29,158 nt of DNA. It comes from Cytophagales bacterium. GTDB lineage: Bacteria > Bacteroidota > Bacteroidia > Cytophagales > Microscillaceae. The notes below the pieces were generated by a model that saw only the letters and a list, made by a program, of their open reading frames with translations, ran no database searches and was not told where the DNA came from. Both the position numbers and the translations under genes were made by a program. This document shows, in pieces, positions 4,082-17,768 of this stretch (positions are counted from its first letter, which is position 1; every line of letters begins with the position of its first letter). The DNA lies in NCBI GenBank assembly GCA_013298105.1, contig JAAFJK010000329.1:1-29158 (forward strand), written 5' to 3'.

Positions 4082-4105
4082 AAAGCCCTCCAAGGGCTTT
4101 TTTCA
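4082..4105 (+). terminator. Rho-independent terminator AAGCCC-tccaa-GGGCTT followed by TTTTT
   Basis: Stem-loop plus T-run immediately after the SPOR gene stop. Confidence 0.6.
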
Positions 4106-4177
4106 ATTCAGATACATTTTGTTTTTTGGCAGGCAAGTTGCAGTTTTAAAGAAATTTAAGTTTTTAAAAAGCACAAT

Positions 4178-4327
4178 AATAAGGAACGAGTAAAAAATAA
4201 CTTGAGAATATTTAGCCACGCTGTAAGCGTCTGTTATCGAGCTTTTACGCGGTTAGGCAATACCAACAGACGCTTACAGCGTGGCTTCGCGTGAGTGAAA
4301 TTATCATGTTATTTTATTTTCATTCCT
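4178..4327 (+). mobile_element. 150-bp MITE-like element, copy 1. Imperfect ~20-bp terminal inverted repeats (AGGAACGAGTAAAAAATAAC ... GTTATTTTATTTTCATTCCT) and an internal perfect 20-bp-stem hairpin (4216-4235 and 4265-4284)
   Basis: 147/150 identity to 5689-5838. TIR and hairpin read from the sequence. Confidence 0.6.
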
Positions 4328-4376
4328 AATAACTTCATTTTCAAATATTTACAAACAAAAATCGTAAATCTTTCTT

Positions 4377-5648
4377 GTGGATACAAACACACCAGAGAAA
4401 AAAAATAGAGGAAAAGGCATAGGACATGAGATATATCCTATGCGCGTAGTGGGCTACCTTGTGCTTTGCATTGAGTTATGGCTTGCTATGCGCATACAGC
4501 CTCCTAAGATACACTTCATCTACATAGCTTGGATAGTGTTCTTTTTTTTATATCCACACCTCATTTTTCAGATTTATCGCTATTTCAAAGCCCGCAATGA
4601 CATCGAGCGAGCTTGGCTTGTCTTAGATTTATTTTGGATAGGGATAGTAGTTGTGATGATTTCGTTTTCGCTGATGCCTACTATGGCACTGATAGTCTAT
4701 AGTACCGCTACTTGCATAGGCATAGGAGGCGTATCTATGTGGCTGAAAGGGCTGGCTACTTTGGGAGTTTCGCAACTTTTGATGTGGTTTTTTTGGGGAA
4801 ACTTTTATGTTACAAGCAATCCAAGCGTGTGGTCAAATATCATAGGCTTCATGTATATGTTTATCGGCTTCAATGCCTACAATTTTGCTTACTATAGGCG
4901 AAGCATTGCTTTCAAAAAAATCCGTATGCAGATAGAAAAGCAAAAAGCCGAGATAGCCGAACAGAAAGAAGAAATAGAATCTACACTTGGCTTAGTAGAA
5001 ATAGAACGCCAAAAATCAGACGAACTTTTGCTGAATATTTTGCCCAAAAGTATCGCTCAAGAGCTAAAAAACTATGGCTTTGCCACGCCCAAACGATTCA
5101 ATAAAGCCACCGTACTGTTTACAGACTTCAAAGGATTTACGCAAATCGTTTCAAAAATGGAGCCAGAGCAAGTCTTGGACAATCTAAACTACTGCTTTAC
5201 GGCTTTTGATAAAATTATTCGCAAATACAATCTTGAAAAAATCAAAACCATTGGTGATGCCTATATGTGTGTAGGTGGCTTGCCTACCGAAGACGAAAAC
5301 AATCCAATACGTGCTGTAGAAGCGGCTTTGGAAATACTTGCTTTTATGAAAGATTGGAAAGCAAAAAAAATCAAATCAGGCAAGGAAGTTTGGGATATAC
5401 GGCTTGGTATTCACACAGGTACAGTGATAGCGGGTGTAGTAGGTCAATACAAATTTGCGTATGATATATGGGGCGATACTGTAAATGTTGCCTCTCGTAT
5501 GGAGAGTAGCGGAGAGGCAGGCAAGGTAAATATCTCTGGCACGACTTACGAACTTGTGAAGCACCAATTTATGTGTACTTACAGGGGGGCTATCCAAGCT
5601 AAAAATAAAGGCGAAGTGGAAATGTATTTTGTGGAGAACAAAATTTAA
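4377..5648 (+). CDS. Membrane-anchored class III adenylate/guanylate cyclase
   Basis: N-terminal TM helices, then a cyclase catalytic domain (TVLFTDFKGFT, KTIGDAYMCVGGLP, IRLGIHTGTVIAGVVG, YDIWGDTVNVASRMES). The ORF as given starts on GTG at 4377. An in-frame ATG at 4440 (MRVVGYLV...) is an alternative start. Confidence 0.8.
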   Translation: MDTNTPEKKNRGKGIGHEIYPMRVVGYLVLCIELWLAMRIQPPKIHFIYIAWIVFFFLYPHLIFQIYRYFKARNDIERAWLVLDLFWIGIVVVMISFSLMPTMALIVYSTATCIGIGGVSMWLKGLATLGVSQLLMWFFWGNFYVTSNPSVWSNIIGFMYMFIGFNAYNFAYYRRSIAFKKIRMQIEKQKAEIAEQKEEIESTLGLVEIERQKSDELLLNILPKSIAQELKNYGFATPKRFNKATVLFTDFKGFTQIVSKMEPEQVLDNLNYCFTAFDKIIRKYNLEKIKTIGDAYMCVGGLPTEDENNPIRAVEAALEILAFMKDWKAKKIKSGKEVWDIRLGIHTGTVIAGVVGQYKFAYDIWGDTVNVASRMESSGEAGKVNISGTTYELVKHQFMCTYRGAIQAKNKGEVEMYFVENKI

Positions 5649-5688
5649 CATTGAGCAAAGGAAAAGTAAGGATTCTTCGAAAGTTTTG

Positions 5689-5838
5689 GATAAGGAACGA
5701 GTAAAAAATAACTTGAGAATATTTAGCCACGTTGTAAGCGTCTGTTATCGAGCTTTTACGTGGTTAGGCAATACCAACAGACGCTTACAGCGTAGCTTCG
5801 CGTGAGTGAAATTATCATGTTATTTTATTTTCATTCCT
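5689..5838 (+). mobile_element. 150-bp MITE-like element, copy 2, in the same orientation as copy 1
   Basis: 3 mismatches to copy 1. In an RNA, one stem mismatch would be a G-U wobble. Confidence 0.6.
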
Positions 5839-5900
5839 TAGTATAAGCGCGGTGCTAAAGTGGCAAACATTCGAAGAACCAAAACTTCTTAAAACAGCCA

Positions 5901-9894: not shown

Positions 9895-10168
9895 CATTTT
9901 TTTGATATATCACAAACTGCACCGTACCGCAAATCAGCGCAAAAAACCTAAAACATATAATAGAGTTCTTGCAAAAGTGCTGTTTTTGATGCCTCACCCC
10001 TCCCCTTCTCCAAATGGAGAAGGGTTAAAAATACTTTCTCAAGAAGTCTAATTCAAAGTTAGGCATTATTTCTCAATCTAAAAAAAAATCTTGTTTTTTG
10101 TTTTTAAGTTTTTATTTTTGAAAATACTTCAGTATGTTTGCATAAAATTGATACAATTTGATATTTAT

Positions 10169-12808
10169 ATGCAGTCCGAAAATAAAAATCAAAAATTACT
10201 AACCGTAAAAGAAGCGGCTGAACTGCTGAAAGTTGCCGAAATATCTGTAAAAAGGTATGTTTCGCAGGGGCTTATTCCTTCTGTCAAGATTGGCGGAGCA
10301 AGGCGTATTGTTCAGAACGAAGTTTGGGAAGACTTTGTTAATTATTCGTCTGATAATCAAGATAATAGTCCTGAAATTATCAACGGTGTACAGTTCTATT
10401 GGTCGCAGAAAAATGCTTCTGTTGCTAATCAAATCTACAAAGAATATTGCAAAGACAATGCAGTTATTCTTGATGGCTTTTTAGGTGGTGGCTCATCTTT
10501 GTATGGTATTAGAAATACAAATTTAAAATTTGTGGGAGTAGATATTAACGAAATGCCTTATCAAATTGCAAAATTCAATTTGCAAAATATTGATAGTCAG
10601 TTTATTGACAGCTTGGAAAAGGAACTAAAAAACATACAATCGCAATTTAATGAGATTTATCACTACACTTGTAGCGATGGGAAAATTTTAGAATTTATCA
10701 AGGTTGTTTTTGATGACAAAGACAATCCACAAATCAAAATTATTCATTTACAAGATGCAGAAGGCAATCGTTTCACTTCTGAAAACTATCCTGAAGCAAT
10801 AGATTTTTATTTGAAAAACTATAAAAATTTTCAAAATATCGTTTGTGGGGATACAAATAACGGCATTGAAGGTTTAGAAAATCCTTTGCTTACCAAAAAT
10901 AGCAGAATTGCTATTAAGGAAAATATGTTTTTAGCTGATATTTTTAGCCCTATCAATTTTTTTGTTTTGTCTGAACTCAAAGAAAAAATTAAAGACAGCA
11001 AAAATCTAAGATTTATTCTTTCTTCTGTTCTACAACTTTGTAAACTTACAGATACCAAATCACAATCACAATTTCCGTTTTGGTTGCCAAAAATTGATTT
11101 GGTAGATAGAAATATCTTTGTTACAATGCTCAATAAAATACAATCTTTGAAAAAGCAAATTGGGCAAGGGCAAATTCAAGAAGTTGAAAATTTTGAAAAA
11201 CTAAAATATGCTTTTGGTAATGCCTGCCTACTGATAAACAAGCCTTTACAAAATATTACCAATGAAATTCCTGATAATTCTATAGATTTTGTTTTGACAG
11301 ACCCGCCTTATTTCGACCAAGTAGCATATTCAGAGTATGCCAAAATATGGGAGTTTTTCTGTGGTTATAAGGCAAATTTTGAAGATGAAATTATTGTTTC
11401 GCAACGTGATATTTGCCAAAGTGATGAAAAAATGTATTTAGAAAACTTGCAAAAAAGTTTTCAAGTCATTTTTGATAAAATGAAATCTCAAGCGCAATTA
11501 TTGATTTATTTTAAAGATAGCCGACCTGAAAAAATGTTTGCTTTTTTGGATATTTTAGATAAAATTGGTTTTTCATTTTTGGGGCAAGAATATTTAGACA
11601 CTGCTAAATTTACCTACAAACAAAATACTACCACCAAAACCACTTTGACAGGAGAGAGTATTTTGAAATTACAAAAGATTGAAAAACAAGAGATTATAGA
11701 AGAAGGAAACTTGCAAATTATTGAAAATTTAGGTATCCAAGAAGTAGAAAATTTAGTAATATATTTTACTAAAACATATCTTTTCGTTCATAAAGAAGCA
11801 ACCTTAAATGAAATACTAAGTAGTGGTTTGATAAAATTATTGTATGATAAAAAAGCCTTGTCATTACTTAAAAAAGCCAAAGATTTTACTACTATTTTTG
11901 AAAAAATTTGCAATTACAATGATGAAAATAGGACATATAGCCTCAAAAACATAGAAATTAAAAACCAACTTTTCTTAGGAGATTGTTTAGAAATTCTAAA
12001 AGCAATCCCTACTAATTCTATAGACTGCCTGATTACAGACCCTCCTTATAACATTTCAGGTTATGACCATAAAAAACAAATTGGTTGGCTTAAATCTAAT
12101 GATTTTTGGAAAAAACAAAAAGCCTTCAAAAAAATAGACGAAACTTGGGATAAATTTTCTGATGATGATTATGAAAGTTTTACAATAGAATGGTTATCTG
12201 AAATCAAAAGAATTGTAAAACCAAATGGCAATATTGCCATTTTTGGAAGTTATCACAATATCTATAAAATAGGTTATTTGATAGAGAAATTAGACTTAAA
12301 AACTATCAATTCTATTATCTGGTATAAACGCAATGCTTTTCCGAATGTAACACAAAGAATGTTTTGCGAAAGTACAGAACAAATTATTTGGTGTGTGAAT
12401 GAAAGCAAGAAAAATGCAAAAAATTGGACTTTCAATTACCAAAAAATGAAAGAATTAAATGGTGGTGTGCAAATGCGCAATCTTTTTGATGTACCTTTAA
12501 CCAAACAATCTGAAAGAGAATTTGGCAAACATCCTTCACAAAAACCTTTAGAAGTTTTGAATAATTTAGTGCTTGCTTTGACAAATGAAGGTGATGTAGT
12601 TTTGGACTGTTTTTTAGGTTCAGGGACTACAGCAGTTTCTGCTTTACAACATCAGCGTAATTTTATAGGTATCGAGCAAAATTATGAGTATTTGCAAATT
12701 GCAGAAAAGAGGTTGGAAAATATTGAATCTGTGATATTTAACAAACCTGAAAACGAAAAAAAGAAATCTAAAACTAAGACCTTGGGAATATTTGACAAGC
12801 CTCAATAA
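10169..12808 (+). CDS. Two-domain DNA amino-methyltransferase with an N-terminal excisionase/MerR-like HTH. Domain 1 has motif I FLGGGSS then motif IV DPPYF (alpha order). Domain 2 has DPPYN then FLGSGTT (beta order). Likely modifies both strands of an asymmetric site
   Basis: LLTVKEAAELLKVAEISVKRYVSQGLIPSVKIGGARRIV HTH. Two DPPY motifs and two FxGxG motifs. Very AT-rich codon usage unlike the flanks. Start taken at ATG 10169, preceded by a TAnnTTTG-like -7 box. Confidence 0.8.
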   Translation: MQSENKNQKLLTVKEAAELLKVAEISVKRYVSQGLIPSVKIGGARRIVQNEVWEDFVNYSSDNQDNSPEIINGVQFYWSQKNASVANQIYKEYCKDNAVILDGFLGGGSSLYGIRNTNLKFVGVDINEMPYQIAKFNLQNIDSQFIDSLEKELKNIQSQFNEIYHYTCSDGKILEFIKVVFDDKDNPQIKIIHLQDAEGNRFTSENYPEAIDFYLKNYKNFQNIVCGDTNNGIEGLENPLLTKNSRIAIKENMFLADIFSPINFFVLSELKEKIKDSKNLRFILSSVLQLCKLTDTKSQSQFPFWLPKIDLVDRNIFVTMLNKIQSLKKQIGQGQIQEVENFEKLKYAFGNACLLINKPLQNITNEIPDNSIDFVLTDPPYFDQVAYSEYAKIWEFFCGYKANFEDEIIVSQRDICQSDEKMYLENLQKSFQVIFDKMKSQAQLLIYFKDSRPEKMFAFLDILDKIGFSFLGQEYLDTAKFTYKQNTTTKTTLTGESILKLQKIEKQEIIEEGNLQIIENLGIQEVENLVIYFTKTYLFVHKEATLNEILSSGLIKLLYDKKALSLLKKAKDFTTIFEKICNYNDENRTYSLKNIEIKNQLFLGDCLEILKAIPTNSIDCLITDPPYNISGYDHKKQIGWLKSNDFWKKQKAFKKIDETWDKFSDDDYESFTIEWLSEIKRIVKPNGNIAIFGSYHNIYKIGYLIEKLDLKTINSIIWYKRNAFPNVTQRMFCESTEQIIWCVNESKKNAKNWTFNYQKMKELNGGVQMRNLFDVPLTKQSEREFGKHPSQKPLEVLNNLVLALTNEGDVVLDCFLGSGTTAVSALQHQRNFIGIEQNYEYLQIAEKRLENIESVIFNKPENEKKKSKTKTLGIFDKPQ

Positions 12809-13806
12809 TCACTAAATCGCCTTTGCTAAGAGAAACTTGTAAACGCCTAACTTCTTTGTCTTTTTCAGCATAGTTTTGGGCTTTTTCTCGAAGTTTCTCT
12901 TTTAATCTTTCTACTACTTTATCAGGTTCTGCCGAAAAAATTGTCAAAACTTCTACTTTTGTTTTATCTACAACAGCCAAAATAATTGCTTTATCCTCTT
13001 TATATTTTTCTAATACATTTGCAGAAATATCTTGAAATTGCCAAGAATATGTTTTTGAAACTTTATATTCATATTCATTCCCATGCTCGTCAAAAGCATC
13101 GTGAGAACCTGCCCCGCCCACCTTGTTCAGAATTTACATTGTGGTTAAGTTCAACCGCAACTAAAACCTCCCATATCTTATTACTTGTCAATAGGTTAGT
13201 AACATTTGTACACTTCTCTAATTCTGCGTTCAAATTGTATAATTTTTGTAGCCAAATATCATATTTTCCATTGGTTTTAGGTACTAAAATTTTTGTTTTC
13301 TGCAATTTTAAATCATTTTCTATTTGTTTTGCAGAAATATTTATCATTCGTCTTGCATTAGGTTTGCCTTTTGGTTTTCTTGCTAATAAATCGTCTGTTC
13401 TTTGTTTTAGGTACAAAGAACAAATTTTTCCGTTTACCAAAATGTACCAATCCAAAAGTGCTGGAAAAACTGTATCATCAATATGAGCAAAAACTACACC
13501 TTCAGCAAGCCCTAAGTTGCTAATTGTGCTGTCTGTGTAGTCGTTAAAAGTCCAAGAGTGGTTGCTACTTGTTTCTTTATAATGCTTGTATTCATATTCG
13601 CCTCCATCTTCATTTTTGGCATCTTTTGAGCCTGAATGTCCCGCAATTAAGTCGTGGTCGAGTTCGTTAGCGATAATAATTTCATAGATTTTTGAATTAG
13701 AGAAGATGTCATCAACGCCAAAAACTTCTAAAAAATCTGCTTGTATTTGGCGAAATTCGTTAATGAGTTGGTAAAAATGGGTTTTATTGATGGTTGTGAA
13801 CTTCAT
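12774..13806 (-). pseudogene. Restriction endonuclease candidate made of two tandem homologous domains, each with ELDHD/ELNHN ... G(S/A)GS.DA..E.G.EYEYK, possibly PD-(D/E)XK-like. It is split into two ORFs (13090-13806 and 12774-13121) by a +1 frameshift inside the second repeat
   Basis: Domain 1 reads ANELDHDLIAGHSGSKDAKNEDGGEYEYKHYKE. Domain 2 reads AVELNHNVNSEQGG | AGSHDAFDEHGNEYEYKVSK, and the alignment continues across the frame change at GGTGGGCGGGGCAGG (about 13105-13121). Convergent 35-bp overlap with the MTase 3' end. Confidence 0.5.
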
Positions 13807-13967
13807 TGATAAATATGGTAGTTAGTAATCTTTGCAAAGTTACAAAGTTTTTACATACCTTTTGGGTTATATTGTTATAAAATGGCAGGCTTGCTAATGT
13901 TGAAGCATCAAATATTTTAACGACAGGTGGTAACTCCATAAATTCTTACCTTTTGGTGTAAAGTATC

Positions 13968-14006
13968 AAAAACCCGCAAAAGCGGAGGGCTTTTGCGGGT
14001 TTTTAT
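13968..14006. terminator. Hairpin ACCCGCAAAAGC-ggagg-GCTTTTGCGGGT with A/T runs on both sides, acting as a bidirectional terminator
   Basis: Inverted repeat plus flanking A5/T5. Confidence 0.55.
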
Positions 14007-17718: not shown

Positions 17719-17746
17719 AACACGCCCGAAAAGGCGTGTTTTTTAC
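17719..17746 (+). terminator. Rho-independent terminator CACGCC-cgaaaa-GGCGTG followed by T6
   Basis: Stem-loop plus T-run immediately after the lipoprotein stop. Confidence 0.6.
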
Positions 17747-17768
17747 AAAAATAATTATTTCAAAAATT

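Follow-up and report, generated by a model that had tools for sequence, protein, structure and literature searches.

Correia elements (also called NEMIS or CREE) are found in Neisseria, where they are 100-155 bp long, carry inverted ends of ~26 bp, use a TA target and lie in intergenic DNA beside genes. These elements may be co-transcribed and form long hairpins that are cleaved by RNase III, and they are not known to have a parent transposase. In MITE-bounded units such as the integron mobilization units, two copies of a MITE (a miniature non-autonomous transposon) bracket a gene segment, and common target duplications surround the whole unit at several loci.

MITECca01 of Cardinium is derived from IS982 and was recognised by comparing its ends with those of the insertion sequence (IS) (PMC9769881). 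The MITEs of Porphyromonas gingivalis are further examples of IS-derived MITEs in the Bacteroidota (PMC4596501). Zator elements are autonomous transposons of eukaryotes whose transposase is related to that of ISAzo13 and which make a 3-bp target duplication (PMC5718144, PMC10045372), and 3-bp duplications have also been reported for ISAzo13 itself (PMC10045372). No report of ISAzo13-derived MITEs was found in the literature searched.

In this report we examine repeats that surround a cyclase gene in a window of 29,158 nucleotides, the whole stretch of DNA analysed, from a Cytophagales contig. Two of the repeats, copies 1 and 2, are with a probability of about 0.88 MITEs that were mobilised in trans by an ISAzo13-family transposase and inserted separately. 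Judged from their sequence, the repeats that flank this gene are transposons of the ordinary miniature, non-autonomous kind, with ISAzo13-family IS ends. The elements of the window would be a further member of a familiar class, the MITEs of an ISAzo13-type IS, because their ends match the IS, other transposase-less elements share these ends and the flanks read T-W-A.

Structure and surroundings of the repeats

Copies 1 and 2 stand in direct orientation on either side of the cyclase gene (Table 1), as the original prediction had stated and as the comparison of the repeats bears out. They are identical at 146 of 149 positions (4179-4327 against 5690-5838). The repeat is real, but the predicted figure of 147/150 was off by one, the count over 4178-4327 against 5689-5838 being 146/150. 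Copy 2 differs from copy 1 by 4221 C>T, 4250 C>T and 4283 G>A, all of which are transitions, and because only these three changes separate them both copies probably derived from one recent master copy. No open reading frame (ORF) of at least 80 amino acids lies inside either 144-bp copy. Terminal inverted repeats, predicted to be imperfect and about 20 bp long, are present at the ends of copy 1 and match at 21 of 27 positions. An internal hairpin with a 29-nt loop was also found as predicted, but its stem is 22 nt rather than 20 nt long, with arms (4214-4235 and 4265-4286) that are 100% complementary.

Only 47 nt separate copy 1 from the start codon of the downstream cyclase gene (GTG 4377), and the protein N-terminus that begins from this codon (GVG) is conserved among the orthologues. 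Copy 2 starts 42 nt past the cyclase stop codon. The statement that all three loci lie immediately 3' of genes is true, yet copy 1 is also close to a start and could, given the 47 nt, influence expression of the cyclase. No Bacteroidota -7 box (TAnnTTTG) was found in the 200 nt that precede the start of the cyclase, and a scan for sigma-70 promoters is not informative for Bacteroidota. A tRNA/tmRNA scan returned no genes. Copy 1 appears to have inserted between the terminator of the upstream gene and the start of the cyclase, and copy 2 would have inserted, separately, where the cyclase and histidine-kinase genes converge, in a small palindrome that lies between them.

The third locus was predicted to share the first ~25 nt of the other two, and an exact 25-mer, TAAGGAACGAGTAAAAAATAACTTG, is indeed present at 22052-22076 on the minus strand (three matches in the window against 0 expected). 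Copy 3 begins 2 nt past the TGA stop (22081-22079) of ORF 22079-22729. The TAA flank of the element was taken for the stop codon of this ORF, which was wrong as the TAA lies 2 nt further. The hairpin at this locus had been regarded as the same architecture with a variable core; it belongs to a separate 122-bp element that was inserted with an 8-bp duplication, found at 22050-22043 and 21920-21913 on either side of it. This nested element folds at -59.5 kcal/mol. When it is deleted from copy 3 together with one ACATTTTG, the joined sequence is identical at 54 of 56 positions to an uninterrupted element of the copy 3 subfamily in a Cytophagales MAG (L001), which sits in a different gene context. 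Copy 3 may be an older, degenerate member of another subfamily that was later hit by the unrelated 122-bp element. Logan contigs of the same organism, assembled independently from short reads, break off 26 nt inside copy 1 and 24 nt inside the nested element, which is the behaviour expected of repeats.

Table 1. Positions of the repeats, their flanks and the cyclase gene in the window
Feature	Position	Strand	Remarks
Copy 1 (putative MITE)	4183..4326	+	144 bp, no coding capacity; ends match ISAzo13-type IS ends
Copy 2 (putative MITE)	5694..5837	+	144 bp, three transitions from copy 1
Left terminal inverted repeat, copy 1	4183..4209	+	First 21 nt identical to the IS end adjoining the transposase C-terminus
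Right terminal inverted repeat, copy 1	4300..4326	+	Reverse complement is GGAATGAAAATAAAATAACATGATAAT; 21/27 against the left repeat
Perfect internal hairpin, copy 1	4214..4286	.	22-bp stem, 29-nt loop
TAA flank left of copy 1	4180..4182	.	Putative 3-bp target duplication; same triplet as 4327-4329
TAA flank right of copy 1	4327..4329	.	
TAA flank left of copy 2	5691..5693	.	
TTA flank right of copy 2	5838..5840	.	Differs from left flank
MASE2 and class III adenylate/guanylate cyclase gene	4377..5648	+	Between the copies; a neighbour of them; PF00211 E 1.5e-56, PF05230 E 1.6e-11
Left arm of 64-bp palindrome, second family	5670..5690	+	End GG(A/T)TTCTTCGAA; split by copy 2
Right arm of split 64-bp palindrome, second family	5841..5880	+	
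Copy 3, left part	22043..22076	-	TAA flank 22076-22074, ISAzo13-type end GGAACGAGTAAAAAATAACTTG, then GGACATTTTG
Copy 3, remainder beyond nested insertion	21873..21912	-	Only a degenerate right end visible (...ATATTCATTGC)
Nested 122-bp palindromic element, second family	21921..22042	-	Inverted ends 19/23; 8-bp duplication ACATTTTG

Ends, relatives and target sites

The 19-mer GGAACGAGTAAAAAATAAC occurs three times in the window (0 expected) and is the terminus of a 1278-bp IS from metagenomes, for which full copies (L011, L018 and L023) and partial copies (L009, L012, L016 and L020) were found. This IS encodes a DDE transposase of the ISAzo13 family (PF07592, E 6.6e-85), and its two ORFs match NF033519 (DDE_Tnp_ISAZ013) with E values of 1.3e-92 and 1.7e-17. 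The left end of copy 1, GGAACGAGTAAAAAATAACTT, is identical to L018 145-165 at all 21 positions, and its right end agrees with the IS end on the other side, GGAATGTCAAAAAAATAAC, at 16 of 19 positions, although this right end is about equally like either IS end (16/19 and 15/19). Outside of ~27 nt at each end, the 144-bp elements share no sequence with the IS. The description of the elements as MITE-like therefore holds, given their 144-bp length, inverted ends and ISAzo13-type IS ends. An IS5/PIF-Harbinger parent, which was guessed from the TAA flanks, was rejected as the full-length element encodes an ISAzo13 transposase. The terminal inverted repeats of ~27 bp would be the sites that a DDE transposase of the ISAzo13 family binds and cleaves, and this enzyme would recognise GGAACGAGTAAAAAATAACTTG at one end and a GGAATG... 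end at the other.

The 144-bp elements contain no ORF and no transposase was found in the 29-kb window, the sole contig of the source genome that was compared; they are therefore classed as non-autonomous derivatives and not as autonomous ISAzo13 ISs. No full-length ISAzo13 element was found in the source-genome DNA compared (this contig only), which counts against the reading of the copies as MITEs mobilised in trans. The base composition also counts against it, as the hosts of the ISs with the identical end are GC-rich (52-59% GC) and the window has 39% GC. A full-length IS outside of the window would supply the transposase in trans, perhaps to the present day, and the 1278-bp IS of L011, L018 and L023 is an example with an identical end.

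The same 19-mer recurs in L001-L007, L009, L011, L012, L016, L018, L020 and L023. Short transposase-less elements that combine the GGAACGAGTAAAAAATAAC end with a matching inverted end around unrelated cores were found in MAGs of Cytophagales, Saprospiraceae, Chitinophagales and other Bacteroidota. L004, L005, L007 and L008 contain elements of 120-159 bp whose left end is the same or closely related, whose right end is inverted and whose cores are unrelated, and L006 probably holds another such short element. The original prediction of a family with a conserved end and a variable core is supported, as no fewer than six other Bacteroidota MAGs carry the same end on unrelated cores and in different contexts, and a full-length ISAzo13-family IS carries it as well. 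A second ISAzo13 member (1302 bp, Calditrichia, L029-L038) encodes a transposase of 56% identity and has a related end, GGATCGGTTAAAAAATAACTTG. At its distinct junctions the left flank is TAA in four of five cases (the fifth is TTA) and the right flank is TAA in three of three. Viral contigs and PLSDB plasmids gave no match to the elements searched.

Nine complete elements of the family provide 18 flanks, all of which read T-W-A (18/18) and most of which are TAA. The two flanks of an element are identical in 6 of the 9, which is not significantly above chance for independent T-W-A flanks. The T-W-A flanks appear to fit the 3-bp duplication reported for ISAzo13, and may represent duplicated target DNA rather than a fixed flank. 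In copy 2 and in two of the IS copies the two flanks differ, one being TAA and the other TTA, which a simple 3-bp duplication does not predict. A model with a 2-bp TA duplication (element ends A...T) was also considered and fits only 3/9 elements, compared to 6/9 for the 3-bp model. The transposase would insert the elements at T-W-A, mostly TAA, in AT-rich intergenic DNA and duplicate 3 bp.

The expected empty site of copy 1 reads ...GCACAATAA-TAA-TAACTTCATT..., and that of copy 2 is the restored 64-bp palindrome, GGATTCTTCGAAAGTTTTGGA-TAA-GTATAAGCG... An empty site was recovered for no family member among the sequences searched, and insertion itself is read from the sequence of the occupied sites. 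Short Logan contigs of the same strain were the only source of matches to the proteins of the window, and several exact look-ups gave no match. For the IS in L011, a neighbour gene that is 95% identical was located in L039, but the DNA downstream of it was not alignable.

Alternative explanations

The original prediction included a composite-like arrangement that could mobilise or duplicate the cyclase gene, in which case the two direct MITEs and the gene would form one 1655-bp mobile unit (4183-5837) that arrived or was duplicated whole. The direct orientation leaves one GGAACGAG-type and one GGAATG-type end on the outside, the same pair as in a single element, and cyclase orthologues with 63-69% identity (the nearest at no more than 69%) sit in different gene neighbourhoods. 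However, loss of synteny is expected at this identity even without transposition, and the surroundings of the orthologous cyclase genes are free of ISAzo13-type ends. The outer flanks of the unit, TAA (4180-4182) and TTA (5838-5840), form no common target duplication around it, whereas copy 1 alone has TAA on both sides. Additionally, copy 2 seems to have entered the 64-bp palindrome on its own because both palindrome arms (5670-5690 and 5841-5880) abut copy 2 alone, with the left arm between the cyclase stop and copy 2. Scans of genomes and metagenomes for the end sequence revealed no locus at which two ends bracket a cyclase gene, and we consider arrival as a unit very unlikely. Movement of the 1.66-kb unit by a transposase in the future is possible in principle. 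Owing to the direct orientation, each of the two types of end occurs once on the outside of the 1655-bp segment, so that an ISAzo13 transposase might treat the cyclase gene and both MITEs as one transposon, and the 22-bp hairpins, which would lie in the cyclase mRNA, might set its stability or translation in the way known from the Correia elements of Neisseria. This combined proposal is a long shot, but if true the locus would show, in nature, how MITEs capture and rewire a second-messenger signalling gene in the Bacteroidota. It is barely conceivable that the repeats are cassette boundaries or site-specific recombination sites (integron attC-like) that flank a gene cassette. Imperfect palindromes in direct orientation do bracket a single gene and each lies 3' of an ORF, but the window contains no integrase or other recombinase, the core sites RYYYAAC and GTTRRRY are absent from the element ends by inspection, these ends are of the DDE-transposon type, and the third copy lies 16 kb away in the opposite orientation. 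The probability of an assembly artefact or a local segmental duplication in place of a mobile element is also close to nil. The window is a MAG contig and metagenome assemblies make chimeric joins at repeats, as seen for the left flank of the Calditrichia IS, which is joined to differing right flanks. However, the three differing sites let assemblers resolve the copies, the passage from the upstream gene into copy 1 is seen again in a Logan assembly made independently, and many unrelated assemblies contain the same ends.

The hairpin element could also be a 3'-UTR, terminator or small-RNA module under selection for RNA pairing, with the repeats as copies of a regulatory RNA gene. The folds are very stable (-61.8 and -52.6 kcal/mol, z -9.4 and -6.6, with -61.8 obtained for the 150-nt stretch that includes copy 1), the elements lie in untranslated regions adjoining genes, and one substitution in copy 2 is compatible with G-U pairing. 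It had been claimed that the copy 2 stem still pairs via a G-U wobble and that this hints at selection at the RNA level. Of the two stem changes, 4221 C>U does leave a U-G pair on the + strand, but 4283 G>A turns its pair on that strand into a C-A mismatch, and on the - strand the roles swap; either strand has one G-U-compatible and one disruptive stem transition, and the fold of copy 2 loses about 9 kcal/mol on both. All three changes are transitions, for which G-U and A-C outcomes are equally likely, and RNA-level selection is unsupported because the stem changes as expected for neutral transitions in G-C pairs. The palindrome is a property of the DNA because both strands fold equally well. 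Furthermore, family members share only the transposase-type ends and differ in their cores, and no U-run follows the stem. The Rfam check that had been proposed was run with Rfam 15 on the whole window and gave no match at the gathering threshold; in E-value mode, both regions matched only generic miRNA-precursor hairpin models (29 and 27.5 bits against gathering scores of 54 and 63). A conserved RNA is highly improbable, and the long internal hairpin would be part of the palindromic core that is common in MITEs. The MITE and family parts of the original interpretation are thus retained, and RNA selection, kinship of the hairpin at the third locus and gene import by the pair are not.

Significance and comparison with described elements

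The reading of the copies as MITEs mobilised in trans would place a previously unclassified repeat of several uncultured Bacteroidota lineages in a named, little-studied IS family, ISAzo13. The conserved end of ~22 nt and the T-W-A target could be used by annotation pipelines to find such MITEs, and the repeats can be flagged as sites of breaks or wrong joins in short-read assemblies. The suggestion of a new structured RNA or gene-capturing device at the cyclase locus is removed. The practical value of the result is modest.

The elements resemble the ISAzo13 ISs (DDE_Tnp_ISAZ013, NF033519) in their shared end and in their T-W-A/TAA flanks, which would fit a 3-bp duplication (PMC10045372), but they are 144 bp long without a transposase and may be derivatives or hitch-hikers of these ISs. 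The relevance of Zator is limited to support for the 3-bp duplication in the ISAzo13 family. Like MITECca01 and other Bacteroidota MITEs, whose inverted ends copy those of a resident IS family, the elements are short and transposase-less (PMC9769881, PMC4596501). They differ from MITECca01 in that the parent family is ISAzo13 instead of IS982, and the ends and the target also differ.

The integron mobilization units differ from the cyclase locus, where the outer flanks are not the same and copy 2 has its own insertion context. The Correia elements have no sequence relation to copies 1 and 2 and use a different target, and a candidate parent transposase has been identified for the elements of the window. 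By analogy, the Correia elements plausibly illustrate what side effects copies 1 and 2 might have on the mRNA of the cyclase.

Ends and flanks

The window carries a 149-nt block in two direct copies that are 98% identical (146/149); the near-identical pair of the original prediction is thus upheld, but not its count of 147/150. Only three transitions separate copy 1 from copy 2, which suggests that these elements were recently active. The two ends of the MITE form an inverted repeat with 21/27 matches, and the internal hairpin that had been reported in each repeat is present, with its stem length corrected to a perfect 22 bp. The elements have no coding capacity and no transposase gene was found in the window. 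An exact 25-mer from the end, TAAGGAACGAGTAAAAAATAACTTG, has three matches in the window, including one on the minus strand, and none in 100 shuffles.

When one genome per species was scanned for exact matches to the 22-mer end, seven loci were returned, each with one copy; their MAGs are labelled Cytophagales, Saprospiraceae, Chitinophagales, and Bacteroidota. The elements at loci L004, L005, and L007 are 120-159 bp long, begin with the 22-mer and end with the inverted ...ACTCGTTCC or a close variant, and their cores are unrelated to one another and to the window copies, as expected of the predicted family with a conserved end and a variable core. A sister MITE with the ends GGAACGGGCAAATAATAAC occurs twice in locus L008. 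The 19-mer GGAACGAGTAAAAAATAAC was found at 16 loci in a scan of metagenomes, and at seven of these one common longer element starts. It is complete in L011, L018, and L023, where it spans 1278 bp from GGAACGAGTAAAAAATAACTTATAAT... to ...ATTATAAGTTATTTTTTTGACATTCC and encodes a transposase across two overlapping frames. The 310-aa ORF matches Pfam DDE_Tnp_ISAZ013 (E 6.6e-85) and the NCBIfam model 'ISAzo13 family transposase' (E 1.3e-92), and the 95-aa ORF matches the N-terminal portion of the latter (E 1.7e-17). The left end of the window MITE is identical to the end of this insertion sequence (IS) over 21 nt, and its right end (reverse complement GGAATGAAAATAAAATAAC) agrees with GGAATGTCAAAAAAATAAC, the opposite IS end, at 16/19 positions. 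The elements are therefore MITE-like as predicted, with inverted ends matching those of an ISAzo13-type IS.

A second ISAzo13 member of 1302 bp, with 56% transposase identity and the related ends GGATCGGTTAAAAAATAACTTG, comes from a MAG of Calditrichia and from related metagenomes. In both members a short ORF (86-95 aa) is followed in the -1 frame by a long ORF (310-314 aa), with a conserved A-run after GG(N)GG(N)CG at the split (A9 in L018, A7 in L029), a pattern suggestive of programmed -1 frameshifting or transcriptional slippage. The closest homologues are 290-345 aa in most cases.

When the bounds are set at GGAAC...TTCC, T-W-A is found at 18/18 flanks of nine complete elements. The flanks are TAA/TAA for copy 1, L004, L005, L007, and the L008 element, TTA/TTA for L011, and TAA/TTA for copy 2, L018, and L023. 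The 1302-bp member has TAA at 4/5 distinct left junctions (TTA at the fifth) and at 3/3 distinct right junctions. A TAA on each side forms a direct and not an inverted repeat, in keeping with the 3-bp target duplication given in the literature for ISAzo13 and for Zator, its relative in eukaryotes (PMC10045372; PMC5718144). Such a duplication by the family of the window MITEs is likely but not proven, because identical flank pairs (6/9) are not significantly more frequent than expected of independent T-W-A flanks and no empty site was recovered. One left flank is joined to differing right flanks in the metagenome contigs that carry the Calditrichia element (L029-L038). Such joins across the IS are chimeric, and flank pairs taken from short metagenome contigs are therefore no reliable basis for identifying target duplications. 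Wrong-flank joins may explain the unequal flanks of L018 and L023, but not those of copy 2.

Coordinates of features (window unless a locus is named)
Feature	Position	Strand	Remark
Terminator-like hairpin	4082-4100		Upstream SPOR-domain gene
Near-match to -7 box	4105-4125		TACATTTTG
149-nt block, copy 1	4179-4327		
149-nt block, copy 2	5690-5838		
Stem arms	4214-4235 / 4265-4286		Spacing 29 nt
Copy 1 to copy 2 changes	4221, 4250, 4283		C>T, C>T, G>A
Cyclase gene	4377-5648		GTG start
Split 64-bp palindrome	5670-5690 + 5841-5880		
25-mer, third locus	22052-22076	-	
Nested 122-bp element	22042-21921	-	
11-mer, example sites	1487-1534, 21766-21794, 22761-22810, 25384-25415, 28066-28098		
Low-GC islands	10000-14000; 26000-28000		GC 0.28-0.33 (0.40-0.45 elsewhere)
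HTH + double N6/N4 DNA-methylase protein	10091-12808		905 aa; first island
AAA_15/AAA_21 + DUF3696 ATPase	26245-27399		Second island; paralogue 17736-18911
MVP homologue	22812-25292	-	826 aa
Transposase frame split	L018 1096-1140		Likewise L011, L023
Transposase frame split	L029 1244-2445		

The third locus and the internal hairpin

At copy 3, the minus-strand locus, the shared end is followed by GGACATTTTG and then by an interrupting 122-bp near-perfect palindrome that folds at -59.5 kcal/mol, has the inverted ends GGTTCTTCGAAATTTATTGCGGA / GGTTCTTAAAAAGTTATTACGGA (19/23), and is bordered on either side by the direct 8-bp repeat ACATTTTG. Removal of this palindrome and one ACATTTTG restores a 54/56 match to an uninterrupted element in a Cytophagales MAG (L001), where the gene context differs. 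The original prediction of a third related locus therefore holds for the 25-mer end and fails for the shared hairpin architecture, as the hairpin belongs to the nested element. The latter is a second small mobile element, unrelated to the MITEs, with an 8-bp duplication; its end motif GG(A/T)TTCTTCGAA (three window matches, 0.23 expected) also forms the arms of a 64-bp palindrome split by copy 2. Plasmids gave no match to this palindromic family, of which the 122-bp and 64-bp palindromes are copies. No convincing right end of copy 3 is present in the window sequence, and we read it as an old, decayed family member. Logan contigs of the source organism (SRR9948921, SRR9948933) end within copy 1, after 26 nt, and within the nested element, after 24 nt; these repeats appear to break short-read assemblies.

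A G-U wobble in the copy 2 stem had been taken as a hint of selection at the RNA level. Position 4221 pairs with 4279 and 4283 with 4217; on the plus strand of copy 2 the change at 4221 results in U-G and that at 4283 in a C-A mismatch, and the reverse is true on the minus strand. About 9 kcal/mol is lost per strand (-61.8 to -52.6 and -60.3 to -51.4 kcal/mol). Since a transition in a G-C pair is equally likely to give G-U or A-C, neutral change would be expected to produce one of each. The feature conserved across the family is the transposase-type end and not the core, and no Rfam family matched the window elements. RNA-level selection is thus not supported.

The cyclase gene and other window features

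Copy 1 lies ~80 nt past the terminator-like hairpin, with its end 47 nt upstream of the cyclase start, which is placed at the GTG because the N-terminal KKxRGKGIGHEIYPMR is conserved in orthologues. The exact Bacteroidota -7 box TAnnTTTG is absent from the 200 nt upstream of the start (4177-4376) but present in orthologues, at -118 and -74; copy 1 may thus belong to the cyclase leader, with a transcript that would start upstream of it. A near-match to the box is found upstream of copy 1. Copies 2 and 3 are located between convergent genes, where insertions are least harmful.

The composite-like layout described earlier is real, and the direct orientation would give a unit of both MITEs and the cyclase gene one of each end type at its outer ends. 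Arrival as one unit is argued against by its unequal outer flanks, TAA and TTA, with copy 1 by itself flanked by TAA/TAA, and by the split palindrome, whose left arm lies between the cyclase stop codon and copy 2, so that copy 2 entered the palindrome alone. A third point against it is that orthologous cyclase genes, at 63-69% identity, have no MITE-type ends nearby; at such divergence their differing neighbourhoods are uninformative.

Elsewhere, the 11-mer GGCAGGCAAGG (variant GGTAGGCAAGG) occurs at 35 sites on both strands (0.34 expected in 29 kb), 25 within ORFs and ten in the non-coding 9.5% of the DNA, with frequent inverted pairs directly past gene ends. It resembles DNA uptake sequences or REP-like elements and no literature match was found; it also occurs in the Logan contigs of the source organism and once each in L001 and L026. 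The 826-aa protein is, by its domain matches, a bacterial MVP homologue (major-vault-protein shoulder PF11978, E 9.7e-31; vault-repeat PF17795, E 2.7e-9). The two low-GC islands are probably defence or mobile islands.

Probable mobilization and relation to known elements

We consider it highly probable (about 0.88) that the window elements are MITEs that a DDE transposase of the ISAzo13 family mobilizes in trans; it would recognize their ~22-27-bp ends and insert them at T-W-A. MITEs are a well-known kind of element. A literature search found no report linking them to ISAzo13, and IS-derived MITEs have been described in Bacteroidota, such as the IS982-derived MITECca01 (PMC9769881).
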